In this document: positions 3,397-28,546 of the stretch, one piece after another
How the letters are laid out: the number at the start of each line of letters is the position of its first letter
How positions within the stretch are numbered: the first letter of the stretch is position 1
Origin: a bacterium
GTDB taxonomy: Bacteria; Patescibacteriota; Minisyncoccia; Minisyncoccales; CG1-02-41-26
Reading direction: 5' to 3'
DNA: 43,301 nt
NCBI GenBank assembly: GCA_018400675.1
Contig: JAGYMG010000001.1
Span: forward strand, 1 to 43,301
Position numbers and translations under genes: made by a program
The notes under the pieces: model-generated
Seen by the model: only the letters and a program-made list of their open reading frames with translations
The model's database searches: none
What the model was told of the DNA's origin: nothing

Positions 3397-4101
3397 TTAT
3401 TTTCTGTCTGCCATAATCCCTTCCCCTATTGCAATATCAATGGGATAGGTTATTTTTATATTTTCTCTTTCTCCTTTAACTACATAAATATCAGCCAATC
3501 CGTATTTTAGGACCAGACCGCAATCATCGCTGATATTTTTAATACCTTTCTTGAGAGCCATATCATGAGCTTTTTTTATAACCGGAAAATGAAAGCCCTG
3601 GGGTGTCTGTTCTCTTAAAAGAGCAGCTCTTGCTGGTATATCCTTAATAATCATTCCTTTGTTAACCCTGACTAGGGTATCACTACTAGGAAAAGCAACG
3701 GTTACTGCAGAAAAGCCCTTTAATGTCTTTAAGACCTCAGAGATTATCCTGTGAGAGACAAATGGCCGCACCCCATCATGGAAAAGAATATTGTCAGACT
3801 TGCTGGCCAAGGATGCCGCTAAACCAATCCGGGCAGAAGCCTGCCTGGTCTCTCCTCCTGCTATTATTTTTGACACCTTCCTTAGTCCTTCCCCTGACAC
3901 TAAGTCCTTGAGTCTCTTAACCAATCCTTTTCTCACGACTACTATTATTTCATCTATAGCCCTATGTTTTTCAAACTTTTTCAGGGTATAACTAATTACC
4001 TCTTTACCAGCTATCTTGGCAAATATTTTTGGAGTTTTTTTGCCAAAACGAATGCCATCGCCAGCTCCTAAAACTATAACAATGTTCTTCTTTTTTCTCA
4101 T
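3397..4101 (-). CDS. IspD/TarI-family sugar-phosphate cytidylyltransferase
   Basis: 234 aa with VLGAGDGIRFG (the P-loop-like GxGxR motif), AGGETRQASARIGL and LFHDGVRPFV motifs of the IspD/TarI family. The sugar-phosphate substrate cannot be assigned from sequence. Confidence 0.8.
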   Translation of the reverse strand: MRKKKNIVIVLGAGDGIRFGKKTPKIFAKIAGKEVISYTLKKFEKHRAIDEIIVVVRKGLVKRLKDLVSGEGLRKVSKIIAGGETRQASARIGLAASLASKSDNILFHDGVRPFVSHRIISEVLKTLKGFSAVTVAFPSSDTLVRVNKGMIIKDIPARAALLREQTPQGFHFPVIKKAHDMALKKGIKNISDDCGLVLKYGLADIYVVKGERENIKITYPIDIAIGEGIMADRK

Positions 4102-4123
4102 TTAAAAATAAAGGTATTAAAAT

Positions 4124-4134
4124 TTAACGCGGCT
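4124..4134. repeat. 11-nt direct repeat copy 2 (TTAACGCGGCT on the plus strand)
   Basis: Exact copy of 3370-3380. It lies 22 nt upstream of the IspD-like start codon. Confidence 0.6.
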
Positions 4135-4297
4135 CTATGCCCATTTCCCGGGCAACATCTTTGTCTAAATCAGCTGTAATAATTTTCCGCCAAAAAACCG
4201 ACCAAACACCCTTAAAGGATAGATACAAAGTTCTCTTATTTCGTCTTGCACAATAACATTTTTGCTATAACAAAATATTATGCCTCTAACCTTTGAT

Positions 4298-5185
4298 TCA
4301 ATTTCTAAATCGTGTGCGATGAATCTTTTCAATTTTAGATTGTTGATGCCTTAATTTTTTTTCTGAACCGTAAACTAATTCTTTTTTATATTGTTCAACC
4401 CCTACAAGAAAATAGTTAAACAGATTAAGCCATTGTCCAAAATCTAAATCTCTGGGGGTCGCTAGTTTTCCAAAATTTAAATCTTTTGACAATCTATTAA
4501 ATTGTTTGTAGCTAAAAATTTTATTGAATGATTTTTTTAAATTTGGCTTTCGCTGGTGAAATCCATAAACAATGAAATCCTTATAGAGCTGAGATCTTTT
4601 TTTCTCAAGCAATATTTTATCTCTCTTTTTTATTCTTAGCAAAACAATATCAACTTTAGGAACAGGATAAAAATCAGTTCTCCTAAAATGATAAACTATT
4701 TCTAAATTAAACCAAGGTTTTAGAAGTACCGAATATTGACTCTCTTTGTCATAAGGCCGACCTACAAATTTTTTTGCCGCTTCTTTCTGAATAATTAGGT
4801 AACTTACCTTTGGTGAATTACTCAATGAAGTCAGCTTATTAATGACTTGTGCGGTAATTGAAAAAGGAATATTTGAAAAAATTTTATATTCCCCTTCTAG
4901 AGGTAACTTTTCTTCCAAGAAGTCTCCAAGCTTAATAACAACATTTTGATAATTAGAGAACGAATCTTTCAGTTTAGAATACAAAACTTTATCCTTCTCA
5001 ATCGCTGTTAGCCTCACTCCTGCATTTGCTAAGGCACATGTCAAAATACCCTTCCCAGGACCAATTTCATAGACAAGATCTCCTTTCTTAAAAGAGGCTT
5101 TTTTAATAAGCTTATCGGCCAGATTAGAGCTCTTCAGAAAATTCTGCGAATATTTTAGAGGAACATTATCTTTTTTAATTCTCAT
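4298..5185 (-). CDS. Erm-family 23S rRNA (adenine-N6)-methyltransferase; putative immunity gene of the RiPP operon
   Basis: 295 aa. Contains KYSQNFL (Erm-type, where KsgA has GQNFL), the SAM motif VYEIGPGKGILT, YKIFSNIPFSITAQVINK (NIPF catalytic motif) and FYPVPKVDIVLLRIKKR. The C-terminal domain resembles the ErmC/ErmB target-binding domain. Its start overlaps the upstream stop as ATGA (5182-5185). Confidence 0.8.
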   Translation of the reverse strand: MRIKKDNVPLKYSQNFLKSSNLADKLIKKASFKKGDLVYEIGPGKGILTCALANAGVRLTAIEKDKVLYSKLKDSFSNYQNVVIKLGDFLEEKLPLEGEYKIFSNIPFSITAQVINKLTSLSNSPKVSYLIIQKEAAKKFVGRPYDKESQYSVLLKPWFNLEIVYHFRRTDFYPVPKVDIVLLRIKKRDKILLEKKRSQLYKDFIVYGFHQRKPNLKKSFNKIFSYKQFNRLSKDLNFGKLATPRDLDFGQWLNLFNYFLVGVEQYKKELVYGSEKKLRHQQSKIEKIHRTRFRN

Positions 5186-5964
5186 TTTCCTAAAGCAATT
5201 AGGTAAAGTGGTGTTTCAGTTTTGTAATTCAGATCTAGCAAATCAACTATTTTTTTATCTAGAAAACCACCTATAGCACAAGATTTTATTTCAAGGGAAG
5301 TGCTAACTAAATGAATATTTTGACTTAAATGACCTGCTTCAAAAAGTATATATCGCCATCCCCTTTCCTTATATTTAATAATTGTTCTTGCGGAAACAGC
5401 AGTAATAATTATAACTAAACTACATTTTCTTATCCAGTTATGGTTAATAGTTTCTCTAAGGTTTTTTTTAAAATCACCTTTTGATAAAATCTCTAAACTG
5501 TTCCATTTTATATTATAATGATAAATCCCTGGTGATATTCCTTTTGCTTTTAACACAATAGGATAAACTTCAAGAGGGTATCTTGCACCAGCTGAGGGGT
5601 ACATTCGTCGGGATTCACTAAAGTCTTTTTTAATTTTATGAACGTCTTTTATCCCGGCAGAAAAATATAAAATTTTACTGATATTCTCTAATGTTAAAGC
5701 TTCCCCTTTAAAATCTCTTTCCGATTTCCTCTTCTCTAATAACGAAAATATAGGATTCTTTTCATTCCTGATCTTTCCAAAAAAGATTTGTTCTAAACGA
5801 GAGTATATTTTAAAATAAATTTTTAGCCAAGTTTTAGGGATTTTATTTTGAGACAGCTCTTTGGTAAATTCTTTTTGTATAGTATGTCTCAAAAAAATAA
5901 AACCTTTATCCTCGGAATTTTCTGACAATAAATCTTTATATAACTTTTTTGCATTACGAGTCAT
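5182..5964 (-). CDS. SagB-type (McbC-like) FMN-dependent azoline dehydrogenase
   Basis: 260 aa. Contains the nitroreductase-fold start LLEKRKSERDF and the SagB-type signature RRMYPSAGARYPLEVY. There is an extension of about 75 aa N-terminal to the fold. ATGA overlaps occur at both gene junctions. Confidence 0.8.
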   Translation of the reverse strand: MTRNAKKLYKDLLSENSEDKGFIFLRHTIQKEFTKELSQNKIPKTWLKIYFKIYSRLEQIFFGKIRNEKNPIFSLLEKRKSERDFKGEALTLENISKILYFSAGIKDVHKIKKDFSESRRMYPSAGARYPLEVYPIVLKAKGISPGIYHYNIKWNSLEILSKGDFKKNLRETINHNWIRKCSLVIIITAVSARTIIKYKERGWRYILFEAGHLSQNIHLVSTSLEIKSCAIGGFLDKKIVDLLDLNYKTETPLYLIALGK

Positions 5965-7250
5965 AAAAAAGGGTGAGGGAATGTATAAATATCTTTTATT
6001 GGTTTAAGCCCTATTCTTTGAGGAACCCTCCATAGTCTTTCTCCTTCCCAACATGGAAATCTGTCGTCTAAATAAAGTGGCTGAAGGCAAGGGACCAAAA
6101 CCTTTACTACCCTAAGGCCTTCTCTCTTTAAGCTTGGCAATGTTATATCAACATATATTACTTCCATCTTTTCTCTCTTAAACCATTTTAAAAGATTTTT
6201 TAAATTATTAGATTTCCGAGGAAAATCTCTTATTGGTTTTTTAGAACCTGCTAAAAAGAAGTCTATTTTTTTAATCATTTCAGGCGAAGACCACAGCAAA
6301 GCTCTGTTTTTTCTTTCATAGACAAGCCGATCTTTTTTAATCCGCTCTAAGTCTTTCTTTGACATTTTAATCATTAATTCTCTCACCCACGGACGAGGAT
6401 GGAAACATTCTTCTGTAGCTCCTATTATTGCATTCTTGATACTGGTGTCTGATTTAAGACCTACAGACACCGCAGGCCCCAAGCCAGTTCTATCTACTAC
6501 AATAGCCATGATAGAATAAACCGGAATATCTGTACTAATATCTAAGAGATAAAGTTCTAGGTTATATCTTTTAAGAGAGGATGCAATCTTCTTTAAGCTC
6601 TTATCCTTAGACTCAGTTATGCTGATAAGATTTCTGGTTAATTTGTTTAAATAGTTAACCATAAAAGCATCCCTTTCAATAACTTCTAAGAGTCCTGTTA
6701 AAATGGCTTTCTCTAAAGAATGATATAAAGCAGCACCAGTAGTAATAGGAAAATTAATAACTGACTCCTTTTTTTCAAATTTATAAGGTACAAAAACAAG
6801 CTGAGCCGGAACAAAAATCTTTTTACCTGTGATTAAAGAGGTTCCCCTAATCCAATTTAATTTTTCGTTATGGTCTTTATAACGATGAAAGTTTAGGACA
6901 GCTTCAGCTTTTGAAAAAGAAATAAATTGCCGGGGGTTAATTGCCTTATCTTTCAAGTTGCTATAACTTTCCCACAAAAGATCTTTTTTACGATAGACAG
7001 CTAAGTTGTATCTTTCCAACGTCTCAGCCACAGTTTTTAATAGCGCCCTCCTTTTAGAAAAAGACGCACATCTTCTGAATCTTTCCGTAACGAAGCCATC
7101 TGTTAAGTTGCTAATATCTTTTATCTTTATAATAAAAGAATGAACCCTAGGTTCATCGTTGTAATTAAATAATTCCCCTTCAATATTCTTAATAATTCTT
7201 TCCTTTTCCGCAACTTCTAATAATTTAATTATAGTTTTTCTAAGATTCAT
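5961..7250 (-). CDS. YcaO-family cyclodehydratase (TOMM D-protein type)
   Basis: 429 aa. The YcaO domain opens at KRRALLKTVAETLERYNL. It has the ATP/Mg-binding-type motif LLEVIERDAF and the Pro-rich C-terminus FPHPFL typical of azoline-forming YcaOs. Confidence 0.85.
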   Translation of the reverse strand: MNLRKTIIKLLEVAEKERIIKNIEGELFNYNDEPRVHSFIIKIKDISNLTDGFVTERFRRCASFSKRRALLKTVAETLERYNLAVYRKKDLLWESYSNLKDKAINPRQFISFSKAEAVLNFHRYKDHNEKLNWIRGTSLITGKKIFVPAQLVFVPYKFEKKESVINFPITTGAALYHSLEKAILTGLLEVIERDAFMVNYLNKLTRNLISITESKDKSLKKIASSLKRYNLELYLLDISTDIPVYSIMAIVVDRTGLGPAVSVGLKSDTSIKNAIIGATEECFHPRPWVRELMIKMSKKDLERIKKDRLVYERKNRALLWSSPEMIKKIDFFLAGSKKPIRDFPRKSNNLKNLLKWFKREKMEVIYVDITLPSLKREGLRVVKVLVPCLQPLYLDDRFPCWEGERLWRVPQRIGLKPIKDIYTFPHPFL

Positions 7251-7315
7251 TTATTAAAAAACAAAAACTAACACTTTATGTTGTCTTAAAAAAAGTTCTA
7301 TAATTTATTTTTTAT

Positions 7316-7495
7316 CTATCTCCGAGGCAAGCTAAATCCGCCGCCGCCTCCTCCTCCGCAACCTGTACCACAATTTCCACCGCCCGCTGAAGTACAACTA
7401 TTAGAGGGTTTTATGTCACTACTTTTTGAAAGTCTAGAAAGATGCTGTTCTTGAATATCTTCTAAAAATATTTTTTTATTGTTTTTATTTTTCAT
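7316..7495 (-). CDS. RiPP precursor peptide (linear azole-containing peptide / microcin B17-like), 59 aa; not in the ORF track
   Basis: Hand translation of the minus strand gives MKNKNNKKIFLEDIQEQHLSRLSKSSDIKPSNSCTSAGGGNCGTGCGGGGGGGFSLPRR, ending at a TAG stop (7316-7318). It has a hydrophilic leader with an F-x-x-x-I motif (FLEDI) and a core rich in Cys, Ser, Thr and Gly. It lies 65 nt upstream of ycaO and downstream of a good promoter. Confidence 0.8.
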   Translation of the reverse strand: MKNKNNKKIFLEDIQEQHLSRLSKSSDIKPSNSCTSAGGGNCGTGCGGGGGGGFSLPRR

Positions 7496-7538
7496 AAGTA
7501 TTAATCTTATTTTTTATAAATCAACCTTTATTGTTTTA

Positions 7539-7566
7539 ATGATAACACTGAGAATAGCATTGTCAA
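7539..7566 (-). promoter_or_regulatory. Candidate promoter of the RiPP operon (TTGACA-16-TGT-TATCAT, extended -10)
   Basis: Read on the minus strand: TTGACA (7561-7566), a 16-nt spacer ending in TGT, then TATCAT (7539-7544). It lies about 45 nt upstream of the precursor ATG. Confidence 0.55.
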
Positions 7567-7601
7567 GAAATAATCTTTATTTTTAAGAATAGCGTTGGTA
7601 G

Positions 7602-8333
7602 TCATTTCTTCTTTTCTAGCGGCAATATAAGGTGAAAGGTGCTGCCCTGGCCTGCCCCGGCTGATTCCGCCCAAATCCGGCCACCGTGGGCTTCAATAAT
7701 CTTGCTGGAGATATAGAGACCCACCCCCTTGCCCAGGGCATAGACCTCCTTGGCTTTTTCTCCTCGCTCAAAGATCTGATTGAATATTTGTTGGGACTGT
7801 GCTGGACTCATGCCAATACCTGTATCCCGGACAATAATCTCCAATGCTGAGTTCTTCTTTAGTTCTACTACTACCCCACCCTGCTGGGTGTATTGGATGC
7901 CATTATTGATAATGTTGTAAAGGGCTTCCTTGAATTTGGCTGGATCGACCTTAATCTGGGGCAGACTCCGGGGCTGCTGCAGTTCCAGGGAGAGCCCCTT
8001 CTCTGCAGCCTCAGGCCTTAACTCCTCGATCACTGACTGGACTAACTCTACTGGTTTCACCTTGGTTAGCTTAAGGATACTCTTACCCATCTGGAACTGG
8101 GAGATGTCGAGGAAGTCATTGACCAGACGAATCAGTTTTTCGGTGGACTCCCTGAAGAATCTGAGCTTGTCTTTAACCATTTGATTCACCCGACCATAAT
8201 CCCCTTCCAAGATCATAGAAACATAACCCTTCATAATGGTTAAGGGTGTCCTGAGGTGATGCTGGGTGGCCATAATAAACTGGCTCTTGGCTGCGTCTAA
8301 TTTCTTTAATTCCTGATGGGCTTGCTTTTCCAC
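7602..8333 (-). CDS. Sensor histidine kinase, C-terminal fragment (HisKA + HATPase_c)
   Basis: 243 aa read from a GTG start. H-box FIMATQHHLRTPLT, N-box NIINNGIQYT, G-boxes VRDTGIGM and GVGLYISSKIIEAHGGRIW. It is in the same reading frame as 8427-9824. Confidence 0.75.
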   Translation of the reverse strand: MEKQAHQELKKLDAAKSQFIMATQHHLRTPLTIMKGYVSMILEGDYGRVNQMVKDKLRFFRESTEKLIRLVNDFLDISQFQMGKSILKLTKVKPVELVQSVIEELRPEAAEKGLSLELQQPRSLPQIKVDPAKFKEALYNIINNGIQYTQQGGVVVELKKNSALEIIVRDTGIGMSPAQSQQIFNQIFERGEKAKEVYALGKGVGLYISSKIIEAHGGRIWAESAGAGQGSTFHLILPLEKKK

Positions 8334-8426
8334 CTGATAGGCTTGCTTGACCTGCTGGTAAGCTTCTCTTAGTTCCTTGGTCTGCTGAGCTACCTTCAGC
8401 TGGAGGTTCTCCGAGAGATCCTGGAC

Positions 8427-9824
8427 CTAGTCATAGAGCTTGGCATTCTCCAGGGCAATCGAGGCCTGGCTGGCTAAGGCAGTCAGGAGGTCGAGGTCTT
8501 CCTTGGAATAAGGATCGCCAGAGATCTTGCGACCGAGGACAATCATGCCGATGATATTGTCTTCCCGGAAGAGCGGTAGGCAGAGGGTGGCCTCAATTCG
8601 CTTCATGTTCTCCTGGAGCTGAGCCAGATTCTCTTTCTCCTCTCTCAAGACAGAGTCTTTCTTGATCAAGGAGAGTTCTTCATAGACCAGGGGTCGTCCT
8701 GTTTGCTGGAGATACTCGGTCAGGAAGTTGTCCTGGACCAGGGAGATACCATTCTCCTCCTTAAAGCCAATGTTCCTGAGGATGGTATAGTTGCCTGTCC
8801 CCTCTCTCAAGAGAATGACTGTTCTTTCTAATTTCATTGTCTCTATCAGGGTGTTAACAATGAGATGGCTGAGTTTCTTTAGGTCAAGGATCCGGGTCAG
8901 CTTGTTGGCCAGTTCGGTCAAGACCTGTTGGTAGGAATAAAAAGTATAGTAGAAGTACTTGGCAGCTATCTCCTCGTAGAAACGGAAGACGGGCTGGAAG
9001 AGGAGAACAGCCAGGACAATGGTTAAGGGACCAATGATGTTGAAGGAAAAACCGTTGCCCGGGAACAAGCCGTTGAGGAATATTGTGAGAAAACTGAAAC
9101 CAACCACTGATAAAAGAGACAAGAGATAGACAGCACTCTTACCGAGGACTAAGCGGATATCCATGAGACGGTAGCGGGTTACAGCATAACTTAATATAAG
9201 AGGATAAAGAAAGACTAAAAAATTACCATAAGGAAGAATGGGAATATCATACCAAAGAGGATAGTTAGTTGCTCCCCCACCAAAACCGACTAGAACAGCC
9301 AACAGTATGTATTTAATCTGTTCGTGCAAGAAACCCCGAGACTTAAAATAAACAAATAATAATTCATAAACTGCATAGCCTATTAATCCTATGTAGCTAA
9401 CAAAAATATAAATCGTATAAATTATGCCTGCTCTGGGCCACCATAAAAAAGAGGCTGTTGGCTCTAAGGATTTAATATAAAAAGGGTTAAAAACAAAAAA
9501 TAAGAAAAATATACTCAAGGAATATCCGAAGAAAATAATAGCTTTCTTTTTTTTATCCCTTTTCAGTAGAACGAGAACCCAGTGCAGAAAAGTTATAGGA
9601 ATAAAAATTGAACCAATTGTTAAAAGACGAACCCAAAAGAAGGCCAGCTCTTTTGTTTGACTAATTAGCCAAAATCCGTAAGAAAAAGACCAGAAACTAA
9701 AAGATAAGGTCAGTAGAGCAAATATTTTATTAACTAGTTTTTTAGGATTTTTTAGATAGACAAAAGCTCCAAAAATAATACCAACTAGCCCATTGATAAA
9801 ACCAGAAAGAGCGAAAATAGCCAT
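8427..9824 (-). CDS. Sensor histidine kinase, N-terminal fragment (multi-pass membrane sensor + GAF domain)
   Basis: 465 aa. About 250 aa of hydrophobic helices are followed by a GAF-like domain (CLPLFREDNIIGMIVLGRK...LASQASIALENAKLYD). It ends at TAG 8427-8429. Confidence 0.75.
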   Translation of the reverse strand: MAIFALSGFINGLVGIIFGAFVYLKNPKKLVNKIFALLTLSFSFWSFSYGFWLISQTKELAFFWVRLLTIGSIFIPITFLHWVLVLLKRDKKKKAIIFFGYSLSIFFLFFVFNPFYIKSLEPTASFLWWPRAGIIYTIYIFVSYIGLIGYAVYELLFVYFKSRGFLHEQIKYILLAVLVGFGGGATNYPLWYDIPILPYGNFLVFLYPLILSYAVTRYRLMDIRLVLGKSAVYLLSLLSVVGFSFLTIFLNGLFPGNGFSFNIIGPLTIVLAVLLFQPVFRFYEEIAAKYFYYTFYSYQQVLTELANKLTRILDLKKLSHLIVNTLIETMKLERTVILLREGTGNYTILRNIGFKEENGISLVQDNFLTEYLQQTGRPLVYEELSLIKKDSVLREEKENLAQLQENMKRIEATLCLPLFREDNIIGMIVLGRKISGDPYSKEDLDLLTALASQASIALENAKLYD

Positions 9825-9845
9825 AAAGAATAAAAATTAAAAGCT

Positions 9846-10757
9846 CTAGTTATTTATTGGTTTTTGAGACCTGTTAACCCAAACCTGCTTAGCAAAAGTT
9901 TTTTCCCAAACCATATTTTTAAAACCAATATCTTCTAAAATAGATTCTAGCTCTTCTTTGGGCAGAAAATGATATATGCCTAATTGTCCTTTTTTTTGTA
10001 TCTGAATCGCATGCTTGAGTATCCTCCAGCCCTGTGAAATACGAGTTATATCTTTATGGACTATATATTCATAGATATTAAGCATGTCCGGGATAGAGGC
10101 CAGAAAAACATATTCAAAACGAACATTTTTTTTAGGCGTTGACCAGATTAAATGACCGCCAGGTTTCAAAACTCTAAAGGTTTCCTCCAAAACTGCTTCA
10201 AGGGCCGCCTTCCCTGTTTTGCCTTCAAAATCAGTGACATAGCTGAGGCAGAGGTTCGCTACAATTCCATCAAAATAATTATCCGGGAAAGGAAATTTTT
10301 TTCCAATACTAGCTGCTTTTAGCTCTAAAGGCATTGGCTCTTTTAGTTTCTCTATCGTCTCCAGGGCTGGTTTTAAAACAATGTCTATCCCAATAATCTT
10401 AGATAATTTTTTTTCTGATTTTTTCCATATTAACTGGCTGATTTTTGCGGGGCCGCAACCCGCGTCTAACCAGACCTCACCTTTTTTCGGCTCTATCAAA
10501 TTACTGATCGTTCTTGTCAAAAAATAATAAGGTCGAGCCTTTTCAAGATTACAATATATCTTTGCGTATTCTTCCCAAAAAGCTGTTTCTTCTTCCCATT
10601 GCTTCAACCTTTCTGAACTAACAGGGTTTAACTCAGACCCTGACTGATATTCCCCGTAAAGGTTATCCTTATTATTTTTTTCTTCTCTTTCTTCTTGAGC
10701 CATTAATTCTAAACTTAATGAATTCTTTAATTTTATAATCATTATCGAAAAAATCAA
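9846..10757 (-). CDS. Class I SAM-dependent methyltransferase
   Basis: Motif I is LDAGCGPAKIS. Post-I is IIGIDIV, followed by FDGIVANLCLSYV and LKPGGHLIW. The track start at 10757 is a TTG codon and the first ATG is at 10742. About 80 aa precede the methyltransferase fold. Confidence 0.7.
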   Translation of the reverse strand: MIFSIMIIKLKNSLSLELMAQEEREEKNNKDNLYGEYQSGSELNPVSSERLKQWEEETAFWEEYAKIYCNLEKARPYYFLTRTISNLIEPKKGEVWLDAGCGPAKISQLIWKKSEKKLSKIIGIDIVLKPALETIEKLKEPMPLELKAASIGKKFPFPDNYFDGIVANLCLSYVTDFEGKTGKAALEAVLEETFRVLKPGGHLIWSTPKKNVRFEYVFLASIPDMLNIYEYIVHKDITRISQGWRILKHAIQIQKKGQLGIYHFLPKEELESILEDIGFKNMVWEKTFAKQVWVNRSQKPINN

Positions 10758-27633: not shown

Positions 27634-28062
27634 TTATTCTATAATCTTAGAGCCCGATTGCTTAATTTTTTCTTCAGCTTTCTTAGAAAAAGTAAGGCCT
27701 TTGAAAGAAAGCTTCTTGGTTAATGATCCTTGGCTTAAGATTTTAATTCCTTTCTTCTCTATTGTACCAATTAAATCCTTTGCCAGTAAAGTCCTGGGCG
27801 TTACTGATGCGCCTACTTCAAAATTATTATTTATTAGGCCTAGATTAACCTCTTGACTCTTCTTATCCTTTGATTTAATACGATAACCTCTTAATTTAGG
27901 ATATTTTTTAATCAATTCCCTAATAAGAGGTTGTTTGTTATTGCCCGATCTTGATTTCTGCCCTTTCATGCCTCGGCCGGAGTATGTCCCCTTTCTGCCT
28001 CCTCGACCAACCCTTTTTCTTGGTTTTACTTTTTGTTTTGGTTCAAGCTGATGTATCTGCAT
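27634..28062 (-). CDS. rplO: 50S ribosomal protein L15
   Basis: KRVGRGGRKGTYSGRGMKGQKSRSG. It starts 2 nt after the S5 stop, so no L30 gene lies between them. Confidence 0.95.
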   Translation of the reverse strand: MQIHQLEPKQKVKPRKRVGRGGRKGTYSGRGMKGQKSRSGNNKQPLIRELIKKYPKLRGYRIKSKDKKSQEVNLGLINNNFEVGASVTPRTLLAKDLIGTIEKKGIKILSQGSLTKKLSFKGLTFSKKAEEKIKQSGSKIIE

Positions 28063-28063
28063 A

Positions 28064-28546
28064 TTATTTTTCTATTTTTAGTTTCTTTAAGGCAGCCATA
28101 GTCGCCATAGCATTGTTAATCTTGTTGCGCGATCTGGAAAGTATTTTAGCACAAATATTTTCTATACCGGCTAAATCGCAAATAACCCTTACCGGGCCAC
28201 CGGCGATAAGACCTATTCCGCTTATCTGGGGTTTTAAGATAACTGCCGAAGCTTCAAATTTAGCTTCTACTTCATGGGGAATAGTTTCTTCTTTTATGGG
28301 CACGGTAATAATATTCTTCCGAGCAACCTTTTCTGCCTTGGCGATTGCTTGAGAAACATCCTTCCCTTTAGCCAAACCAATACCCACTTTTCCTTTTTTA
28401 TCACCAATGACAACACAGGCCCGAAAACGCAGTTTCTTACCGCCACCAGTAACTCGGGTTACCCGATCTAAATCAAGAATCTTGGATTTAAAATCATCCT
28501 CTTTTTTTCCTCTATTCTCTTTTCTTGATAAATTTCTTTTTGGCAT
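28064..28546 (-). CDS. rpsE: 30S ribosomal protein S5
   Basis: VTRVTGGGKKLRFRACVVIGDKKGKVGIGLAKGKDV. Confidence 0.95.
   Translation of the reverse strand: MPKRNLSRKENRGKKEDDFKSKILDLDRVTRVTGGGKKLRFRACVVIGDKKGKVGIGLAKGKDVSQAIAKAEKVARKNIITVPIKEETIPHEVEAKFEASAVILKPQISGIGLIAGGPVRVICDLAGIENICAKILSRSRNKINNAMATMAALKKLKIEK

Follow-up and report, generated by a model that had tools for sequence, protein, structure and literature searches.

The window analysed here is the whole of a 43,301-nt stretch of contig JAGYMG010000001.1 (assembly GCA_018400675.1, positions 1 to 43,301, forward strand). The interval 4298-7566 on its minus strand holds four consecutive open reading frames (ORFs) of 59, 429, 260, and 295 aa, which encode a candidate precursor peptide, a YcaO cyclodehydratase of the SagD/thiazole-oxazole-modified microcin (TOMM) type, a SagB-type azoline dehydrogenase, and an Erm-type 23S rRNA methyltransferase (Table 1). 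The interval is one operon of a Parcubacteria-type bacterium of the candidate phyla radiation (CPR), in which the enzyme genes are translationally coupled. An earlier note on this DNA had named the same set of precursor, YcaO, SagB, and Erm genes, and every element that it named is present. No plus-strand ORF longer than 48 aa was found within 4298-7566.

Table 1. Features of the operon and of the gene directly upstream (positions in the window; FMN, flavin mononucleotide).
Feature	Position	Strand	Remark
Promoter-like site, sigma-70-like, extended -10	7539-7566	minus	TTGACA-16 nt-TG-n-TATCAT
Precursor peptide gene, 59 aa	7316-7495	minus	MKNKNNKKIFLEDIQEQHLSRLSKSSDIKPSNSCTSAGGGNCGTGCGGGGGGGFSLPRR
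Conserved leader motif LEDIQEQ, residues 11-17	7445-7465	minus	probable maturase recognition sequence (predicted role)
Predicted core, about residues 31-59	7319-7405	minus	SNSCTSAGGGNCGTGCGGGGGGGFSLPRR; predicted boundaries
YcaO cyclodehydratase, SagD/TOMM type, 429 aa	5961-7250	minus	C-terminus FPHPFL
SagB-type FMN-dependent azoline dehydrogenase, 260 aa	5182-5964	minus	contains RMYPSAGARYPLEVY
Erm-type 23S rRNA adenine N6-methyltransferase, 295 aa	4298-5185	minus	proposed self-immunity gene
Sensor kinase, 7TM-GAF-HisKA-HATPase	7602-9824	minus	directly upstream of operon; possible accessory gene, membership uncertain

The start of the SagB gene overlaps the stop of the YcaO gene as ATGA (...TTTTTATGACTCGT...), and the start of the Erm gene overlaps the stop of the SagB gene in the same way (...GGAAAATGAGAATT...); both overlaps, which the earlier note had placed at 5961-5964 and 5182-5185, were read directly in the sequence. 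The precursor ORF lies 65 nt upstream of the YcaO gene. The near-consensus extended -10 promoter claimed in front of it is also there, with 11 of 12 consensus matches plus the extended -10 TG, and 43 nt separate the end of its -10 hexamer from the precursor ATG. This site is the best of 14 promoter-like matches in 3900-8000, a number which is not above chance (13.2 expected from shuffled sequence), and the consensus match by itself is therefore weak evidence; the call is a consensus match only, made in a group whose promoters are uncharacterised. Among related clusters (locus numbers with the prefix L), sites with at least 10 of 12 matches occur in 4 of 12, standing 41-50 nt before the precursor ATG in L084, L094 (12/12), and L001, and 69 nt before it in L092. 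No recognisable Shine-Dalgarno sequence was found within 25 nt before the ATG in any of 13 precursor genes, and the leaders preceding the ATG (7496-7538 in the window and its equivalents in L084-L168) are almost pure A+T.

The three enzymes belong to the TOMM YcaO, SagB, and Erm families. The YcaO protein scores 182.3 bits on PF02624 (cut-off 25.7) and 262.4 bits on TIGR03604, the model of SagD-family cyclodehydratases (cut-off 219.25), while the dehydrogenase scores 70.0 bits on the nitroreductase model PF00881 (cut-off 23.5) and 154.7 bits on the SagB-family model TIGR03605 (cut-off 78.4). Thus both proteins pass the TOMM-specific cut-offs that had been suggested as a check, and the YcaO with ExxERD motif and FPHPFL end and the SagB-type dehydrogenase, first recognised by eye, are confirmed in their families by curated hidden Markov models (HMMs). 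In an alignment of 39 homologues, the YcaO residues E76, E79, R80, E189, E192, and R193, like P425-H426-P427 at the C-terminus, are invariant or nearly so; the protein keeps the ExxER motifs for ATP and Mg as well as the C-terminal PxP motif, which is typical of azoline-forming YcaOs (PMC7136475). An AlphaFold2 model of the YcaO protein (predicted local distance difference test, pLDDT, 92.4; predicted template-modelling score, pTM, 0.93) has the azoline-forming heterocyclase LynD as its best fold match (TM-score 0.77-0.79), followed by MusD and the Methanocaldococcus jannaschii YcaO. At the sequence level, the YcaO domains (about 414-781) are the only parts of MusD, TruD, and LynD in the PDB to which the YcaO profile aligns, and the profile scores 26 bits against McbD versus 114-125 bits against LynD and MusD. 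The PDB sequence matches of the SagB protein are the cyanobactin oxidase CyaGox, a SagB-type dehydrogenase (8pz5), McbC, and BmdC.

The Erm-like methyltransferase described as the last gene of the operon scores 172.1 bits on the RrnaAD model PF00398 (cut-off 24.0) and passes the 23S Erm model NF000499 by a narrow margin (220.5 bits, cut-off 212), while on the KsgA model TIGR00755 it reaches 167.6 bits and remains under the cut-off of 171. Its best PDB sequence matches are ErmAM (1yub), ErmC' (1qam), and ErmE (6nvm) over residues 3-261, ahead of all KsgA entries, and it aligns to Erm(42) over residues 2-295, including the C-terminal RNA-binding domain. The protein thus has the two-domain architecture of the Erm family, a Rossmann methyltransferase domain followed by the RNA-binding domain, and it contains EIGPGKG, the GxGxG motif that binds S-adenosylmethionine (SAM), and NIPF, the N(I/L)P(Y/F) catalytic motif. 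Six further Erm homologues embedded in related clusters score 223-247 bits on NF000499 and lower on the KsgA model; as a control, the off-cluster RrnaAD gene of L105 is a clear CPR KsgA, with 252.6 bits on the KsgA model versus 194.7 on the Erm model. By homology, the window enzyme is expected to methylate A2058 of 23S rRNA.

The closest homologues of this methyltransferase (56-65% identity) adjoin other modules resembling those for peptides made on the ribosome and modified after translation (RiPPs), namely L165:6001-8263, L170:1975-6109, and L172:3454-5894. In L165-167, an MvdD/RimK-like ATP-grasp gene and a 43-aa Thr/Asp-rich ORF stand beside the Erm gene; in L170 and L172 the neighbours are a radical-SAM (SPASM) enzyme and homologous 54-56-aa ORFs (..KKIS.KE..ESGCCF.SCGG.P..QQ..), and L170 additionally carries a divergent ABC-F gene. 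The Erm clade of the window may serve as immunity for several peptide chemistries.

The 59-aa ORF, whose exact sequence is already on record as a called gene, begins with a Lys/Asn-rich N-terminus and a leader, continues into a Gly/Cys/Ser/Thr-rich core, and ends in FSLPRR. Its predicted core offers three Cys and six Ser/Thr for cyclisation. ORF extraction upstream of YcaO in related loci yielded one small homologous ORF per locus, and in most of 13 aligned precursors LEDI(R/Q/K)E(Q/H) or a near variant of it is followed by a hypervariable Cys/Ser/Gly-rich tail. By sequence, a conserved leader joined to a hypervariable core is the usual RiPP pattern. A six-frame search for [LIM]E[DN][IVM]x[EA][QH] with a Cys-containing tail rich in Cys/Ser/Thr/Gly after it gave a single match in the window, the 59-aa ORF itself, and a single match in each of 14 related loci, in every case a short way upstream of YcaO, which argues that the precursor is more than a chance ORF; the suggestion that this ORF is the precursor has thus gained a conserved leader and a motif found once in the window. 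A tblastn search with the window precursor returned no matches, as the peptide is short and of low complexity. The core type ADSSSCSDPGGGGTGGGGA is common to L084, L085, L086, L094, and L168, and the cores of L084, which carries Erm, and L085, which carries ABC-F, are nearly identical.

Relatives of the cluster were gathered by scanning species-representative genomes and metagenome contigs and by exact-protein look-ups, which together yielded 158 loci having a primary YcaO ORF, and neighbours were counted within about 3.5 kb of YcaO. The recurrent YcaO-adjacent genes across these loci were SagB, which follows YcaO (132 loci), an M16 peptidase (22), ABC-F (14), and an Erm-type gene (12) only. 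Within the close clade, defined by a YcaO at least 43% identical to that of the window and classified where flanking sequence was sufficient, there are about ten distinct clusters with a conserved LEDI(R/Q)EQ leader precursor, and seven of these, including the window, carry Erm. The Erm gene follows SagB in the window, L084, L094/95, and L168, stands upstream of the precursor in L087-89 and L091, and lies between YcaO and SagB in L092/93; in all three positions it is separated from its neighbours by short gaps or overlaps them. The precursor-YcaO-SagB-Erm order of the window is repeated in L084, L094/95, and L168 at 43-57% YcaO identity.

Two to three distinct clusters of the same clade instead carry an ABC-F gene which passes NF000355, either between YcaO and SagB (L081-83/L102), immediately upstream (L001), or 3.8 kb upstream (L085), and in a more distant sub-clade (L009, L010, L140/141) ABC-F directly follows SagB. 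On NF000355 ('ribosomal protection-like', cut-off 380), the proteins of L081, L085, and L010 score 451.5, 425.0, and 394.3 bits, and they are far under the EttA and Uup cut-offs. Neither gene was found in L096/97, in the truncated L086, or in L098, which at 42% identity falls just under the clade threshold. In a neighbour-joining tree of YcaO, Erm and ABC-F clusters are interleaved, with L084 (Erm) and L085 (ABC-F) as sisters and L087 (Erm) and L081 (ABC-F) as sisters. A linkage kept through changes of gene order, together with the swap of one 50S-protecting gene for an unrelated one, is what cognate immunity predicts, and the main evidence that the product acts on the peptidyl-transferase region or exit tunnel of the 50S subunit is the alternation of Erm and ABC-F in one cluster family. 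Comparative support has thereby been gained for the 'antibiotic-plus-immunity module', which the earlier note had inferred from a single locus.

A tblastn search of 80 genome-contig loci had returned no Erm gene, which made Erm appear unique to the window; this was overturned by the metagenome scan with the close-clade alignment. Other genes also occur beside close clusters. A GNAT acetyltransferase gene follows SagB in L096:8057-8554 (+), L087:8311-8766 (-), and L085:8172-8558 (+), and that of L096, a locus with neither Erm nor ABC-F, overlaps the SagB stop by 4 nt; the acetyltransferase may act in tailoring or serve as an alternative immunity gene. Two radical-SAM genes lie at L085:2594-4340, between ABC-F and NAD synthase and upstream of the precursor.

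Gene content, enzyme families, operon structure, leader conservation, and the repeated association with Erm or ABC-F are established, and we propose that the operon makes a linear azole-containing peptide (LAP) and protects the ribosome of its producer against that peptide, a reading to which we give a probability of about two in three (0.68). The 59-aa precursor would be recognised via its LEDIQEQ leader motif, and YcaO, using ATP, would by cyclodehydration turn Cys and Ser/Thr residues in the Gly-rich core into azolines, which the SagB-type flavoprotein would oxidise to thiazoles and oxazoles; these two steps rest, by analogy, on the established enzymology of YcaO/SagB systems. The leader would then be removed by a protease encoded outside the operon, and the mature peptide would bind the 50S exit-tunnel/peptidyl-transferase region, overlapping the macrolide-lincosamide-streptogramin B site. 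The co-translated Erm-type enzyme would N6-methylate 23S rRNA, at A2058 by homology, and so spare the ribosomes of the producer. The azole product, its ribosomal target, the methylated nucleotide, leader recognition by YcaO without a partner, and the leader-removal and export routes are inferred.

The absence of a leader-binding partner was followed through the wider family. The profile comparison with the PDB revealed no fused E1-like or RiPP recognition element (RRE) domain in the window YcaO, and all-against-all clustering revealed no E1-like or ThiF-like partner gene among the recurrent neighbours of related loci. That clustering missed divergent ThiF-like genes, as was exposed by a Pfam match in L098 (1404-2048) directly upstream of YcaO. 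With an HMM built from 26 YcaO-adjacent ThiF-like genes, such a gene was found directly upstream of YcaO in 47 of the 158 related loci (e.g., L098, L018, L016, L060, and L053), mostly from non-CPR bacteria and haloarchaea with few from DPANN or CPR, and including Streptosporangium, Paenibacillus, Nitrospinaceae, Acidobacteria, and cyanobacteria. The same HMM gave no match at E up to 0.01, either in the window, read in all six frames over its 43 kb, or in the close-clade loci. About 110 loci, mostly of CPR and DPANN, have no ThiF-like partner within 6 kb, and in these YcaO, SagB, and precursor are intact and the catalytic residues invariant. Judged by sequence, the window clade thus stands within the F-protein-type YcaO family and locally has no F protein; since more distant relatives do have the ThiF-like partner, the 'minimal' partner-free state is a feature of the window clade and not of the whole YcaO family, and most CPR lineages have probably lost the partner.

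In the structural model, the N-terminal 60 residues of YcaO, considered as a possible substitute for the partner, form one helix and three strands continuous with the YcaO fold, the M. jannaschii YcaO aligns from residue 21, and the N-terminal length is similar with or without a ThiF-like neighbour; this region looks like an ordinary part of the fold. YcaOs which act without a partner include the bottromycin enzymes (PMC7136475) and the thioamidation YcaO of M. jannaschii, which was crystallised with its peptide (PDB 6PEU, a structure match of the window protein), and the window YcaO may likewise recognise its leader unaided. The statement that the operon has no C-protein, exporter, or protease proved correct for the window in the profile, ThiF-like HMM, and window searches: no transporter gene was found in the operon or directly flanking it, and the whole 43 kb contains no ABC-F, M16 peptidase, or GNAT gene and no second RrnaAD gene. 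An insulinase-type M16 peptidase follows SagB in the 22 loci mentioned above, in a different sub-clade (e.g., L122:5501-6766, L004, and L093), and is probably the leader peptidase there.

Several points weigh against the proposed self-protecting azole-peptide operon. Azoline-forming YcaOs need an E1-like/ThiF-like partner 'in most cases' (PMC7136475), and the operon contains neither an exporter nor a leader peptidase. The Erm score is only 8.5 bits over its cut-off and the KsgA score only 3.4 bits under its own, and the 43 kb window has no second RrnaAD gene, so that the Erm-type gene may have a dual or housekeeping role. Because the related clusters share ancestry, the seven Erm cases cannot be counted as independent of one another. 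The Gly-rich core is as similar to that of the gyrase poison microcin B17 as to those of ribosome-targeting azole peptides. Finally, resistance to klebsazolicin maps to U2584C rather than to A2058 (PMC11484942), so that sensitivity of an azole peptide to Erm is without experimental precedent.

These points feed several other explanations. The operon might not be self-sufficient, its YcaO requiring a ThiF- or E1-like partner which is encoded elsewhere or has been lost from a decaying cluster; the general need for a partner (PMC7136475) and the gene directly before YcaO in 47 of 158 related loci speak for this, and an in-frame stop in the neighbouring kinase gene makes some regional decay conceivable. 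However, the roughly 110 partner-free loci keep intact genes and invariant catalytic residues, the four ORFs of the window are themselves intact and translationally coupled, and partner-independent YcaOs exist in bottromycin biosynthesis (PMC7136475) and in M. jannaschii (PDB 6PEU), for which reasons we hold this explanation to be unlikely. That the azole peptide is made, with the Erm-like gene being a housekeeping KsgA/RsmA, or a general macrolide-resistance gene that only happens to share the variable region, instead of cognate immunity, is suggested by the KsgA score of 167.6 bits, barely under 171, by the lack of another RrnaAD gene in the window, and by close Erm homologues located away from YcaO, such as that of L171 among housekeeping genes and the closest of all (L165, 65% identity), which has no adjacent YcaO. 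Against this, all seven cluster-embedded copies lie above the Erm cut-off and have lower scores on the KsgA model, with the true CPR KsgA of L105 showing the reverse; Erm has been retained through three gene orders, including its insertion between YcaO and SagB in L092/93, and its window copy is coupled translationally; and sister clusters hold a ribosomal-protection ABC-F in the same place, a swap which chance adjacency to a housekeeping gene would not predict. We consider a merely housekeeping or general resistance role improbable.

A product that does not act on the ribosome, such as a gyrase poison like microcin B17 or a peptide for metal binding or signalling, would leave Erm and ABC-F to guard against antibiotics of the host or of neighbours. 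In the core GGGNCGTGCGGGGGGG, as in that of microcin B17, isolated Cys and Ser stand in a Gly-rich sequence, and CPR bacteria are attached to hosts that may make macrolide-type compounds. Yet no gyrase-protecting pentapeptide-repeat protein or exporter was found in the operon or recurrently near the 158 loci, and the recurrent non-biosynthetic neighbours besides the peptidase, Erm and ABC-F, both act on the 50S subunit. Since in-operon immunity genes generally outperform core composition as predictors of the target, as in self-resistance-guided mining (PMC7136475), a non-ribosomal target seems quite unlikely. The Erm-like protein might also be a tailoring enzyme which methylates an N-terminal or side-chain amine of the peptide and not rRNA: some azole peptides, such as plantazolicin, are N-methylated by a SAM enzyme encoded in the cluster (PMC7136475), and other methyltransferases occur near related clusters (9846-10757 in the window, and neighbours in L102 and L168). 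However, the protein aligns at full length, C-terminal RNA-binding domain included, to Erm(42), ErmAM, ErmC', and ErmE; Erm is interchangeable with ABC-F, which is not a tailoring enzyme; and the same Erm clade stands beside radical-SAM and ATP-grasp RiPP chemistries, whose peptides have no obvious methyl-acceptor feature in common. Peptide tailoring is therefore the explanation to which we give very little credence, and immunity of the producer's ribosome to its own azole peptide remains the preferred reading.

A broader proposal is that CPR and DPANN lineages carry partner-free azole-peptide synthetases, that the products are exit-tunnel/peptidyl-transferase inhibitors sensitive to A2058 methylation, and that Erm and ABC-F in these lineages serve mainly as immunity for YcaO/SagB, radical-SAM, and ATP-grasp peptides. 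We regard this extension as tentative and, taken as a whole, rather doubtful.

The surroundings of the operon agree with the claim that the DNA comes from a reduced CPR-type genome: the named relatives of the SecY protein are Nealsonbacteria, Gribaldobacteria, Pacebacteria, and Parcubacteria, and the minus-strand genes for uS5 (28064-28546) and uL15 (27634-28062) are one base apart with no uL30 gene between them, which is a CPR pattern. The cluster itself (4001-7000) has a G+C content of 0.30-0.34 versus 0.38-0.42 in its flanks, the 8-9 kb stretch being unusually high at 0.485. The flanking genes vary among relatives (IspD and the kinase in the window; NAD synthase in L084, L085, L094/95, and L168), and one close YcaO (P0010, 54% identity) is labelled as that of a Methanocellales archaeon. 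The low G+C content, the differing flanks, and the archaeal-labelled YcaO point to horizontal transfer of the cassette and are consistent with a mobile cluster.

The sensor kinase gene upstream of the operon is split by a single in-frame TAG at 8427-8429 into a 7TM-GAF ORF (8427-9824) and a HisKA-HATPase ORF (7602-8333), and the coiled-coil linker continues past the TAG (..KLYD*VQDLSENLQLKVAQQTKELREAYQQ..); the TAG is either a nonsense interruption, a sequencing error, or a read-through codon. Homologous kinases flank the clusters L102:3511-5862 and L168:7079-9830 and the Erm-linked loci L165:3822-5342 and L172:8299-9924. Such HisKA_7TM kinases are found on either side of the clusters, often with a SAM methyltransferase (7602-10757 in the window), and in L168 and L172 also with a response regulator. 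The kinase may regulate the cluster, or its place there may be no more than conserved synteny.

The mode of action of an azole peptide is usually unreadable from its genome, and in this case the alternating Erm and ABC-F genes predict the macrolide site of the 50S subunit, from an operon as small as 3.3 kb and four genes. If the proposal is true, it would show the function of one class of CPR secondary metabolites, which bears on competition among epibionts or on host control, and it would give enzymology an azole-forming YcaO able to act with no leader-binding partner. It would also connect the environmental history of erm and ABC-F resistance genes with peptide antibiotics in addition to macrolides, and the broader proposal, if true, would mean an unrecognised natural role and reservoir of two clinically important resistance families.

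The cluster type itself is already known. Sharrar et al. 2020 reported 110 YcaO clusters in 93 CPR genomes, most with an adjacent nitroreductase, and in Microgenomates and Parcubacteria these loci place YcaO beside a nitroreductase and a small Cys/Ser-rich ORF; their example has a peptidase, matching the M16 peptidase of 22 loci here, and phazolicin served as an analogy, while the portions consulted describe no immunity gene, Erm/ABC-F sub-clade, leader motif, or absent partner (PMC7298704). A 2020 mining review of translation-targeting azole peptides excluded clusters with a standalone YcaO (PMC7136475), and a 2025 survey interpreted CPR YcaOs as thioamidation factors of methyl-coenzyme M reductase (PMC12153355). 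A literature search, thin on papers in subscription journals, brought up no Erm or ABC-F gene reported within a YcaO cluster. The claim that this architecture is unlike any characterised LAP cluster therefore stands in part: there appears to be no earlier description of the embedded ribosome-protecting genes, of the target to which they point, or of the absent partner, while CPR clusters of YcaO and nitroreductase had already been mined (PMC7298704).

Among characterised systems, the F-protein-dependent TOMM clusters (heterocycloanthracin and the thiopeptide cyclodehydratases), whose F protein is Ocin-ThiF-like, are related to the window through the 47 ThiF-like loci of the wider YcaO family; they differ in having the ThiF-like gene upstream of YcaO, where the window and its close clade have none. 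Microcin B17 requires McbB for its synthesis, targets gyrase, and has McbG and McbEF as immunity proteins. None of McbB, McbG, and McbEF is encoded in the window operon or recurs near the 158 loci. The likeness to microcin B17 lies in a Gly-rich core with scattered Cys and Ser, which are converted to thiazoles and oxazoles by a YcaO (McbD) and a dehydrogenase (McbC) of the microcin B17 synthetase (PMC6395948); both McbC and McbD give detectable matches to the window enzymes, that of McbD being far weaker than those of LynD and MusD.

Klebsazolicin of Klebsiella and phazolicin of Rhizobium are ribosome-targeting linear azole peptides. As is predicted for the window, their precursors are modified by a YcaO and a SagB/McbC-type dehydrogenase, and these azole peptides sit in the exit tunnel at a site overlapping those of macrolides and streptogramin B (PMC6783444), the region which proteins of the Erm and ABC-F kinds in the present cluster family protect. 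Their clusters encode an E1-like C protein and an immunity exporter (PhzE; PMC6783444), whereas the window has neither and carries a methyltransferase instead. In this respect it resembles the self-resistance of macrolide producers, in which the same two families, represented by ErmE and by the ABC-F proteins OleB, CarA, and TlrC, shield the 50S subunit of the producer; there, however, the genes belong to polyketide clusters of actinomycetes, whereas here they belong to a ribosomal-peptide cluster of an ultra-small bacterium.

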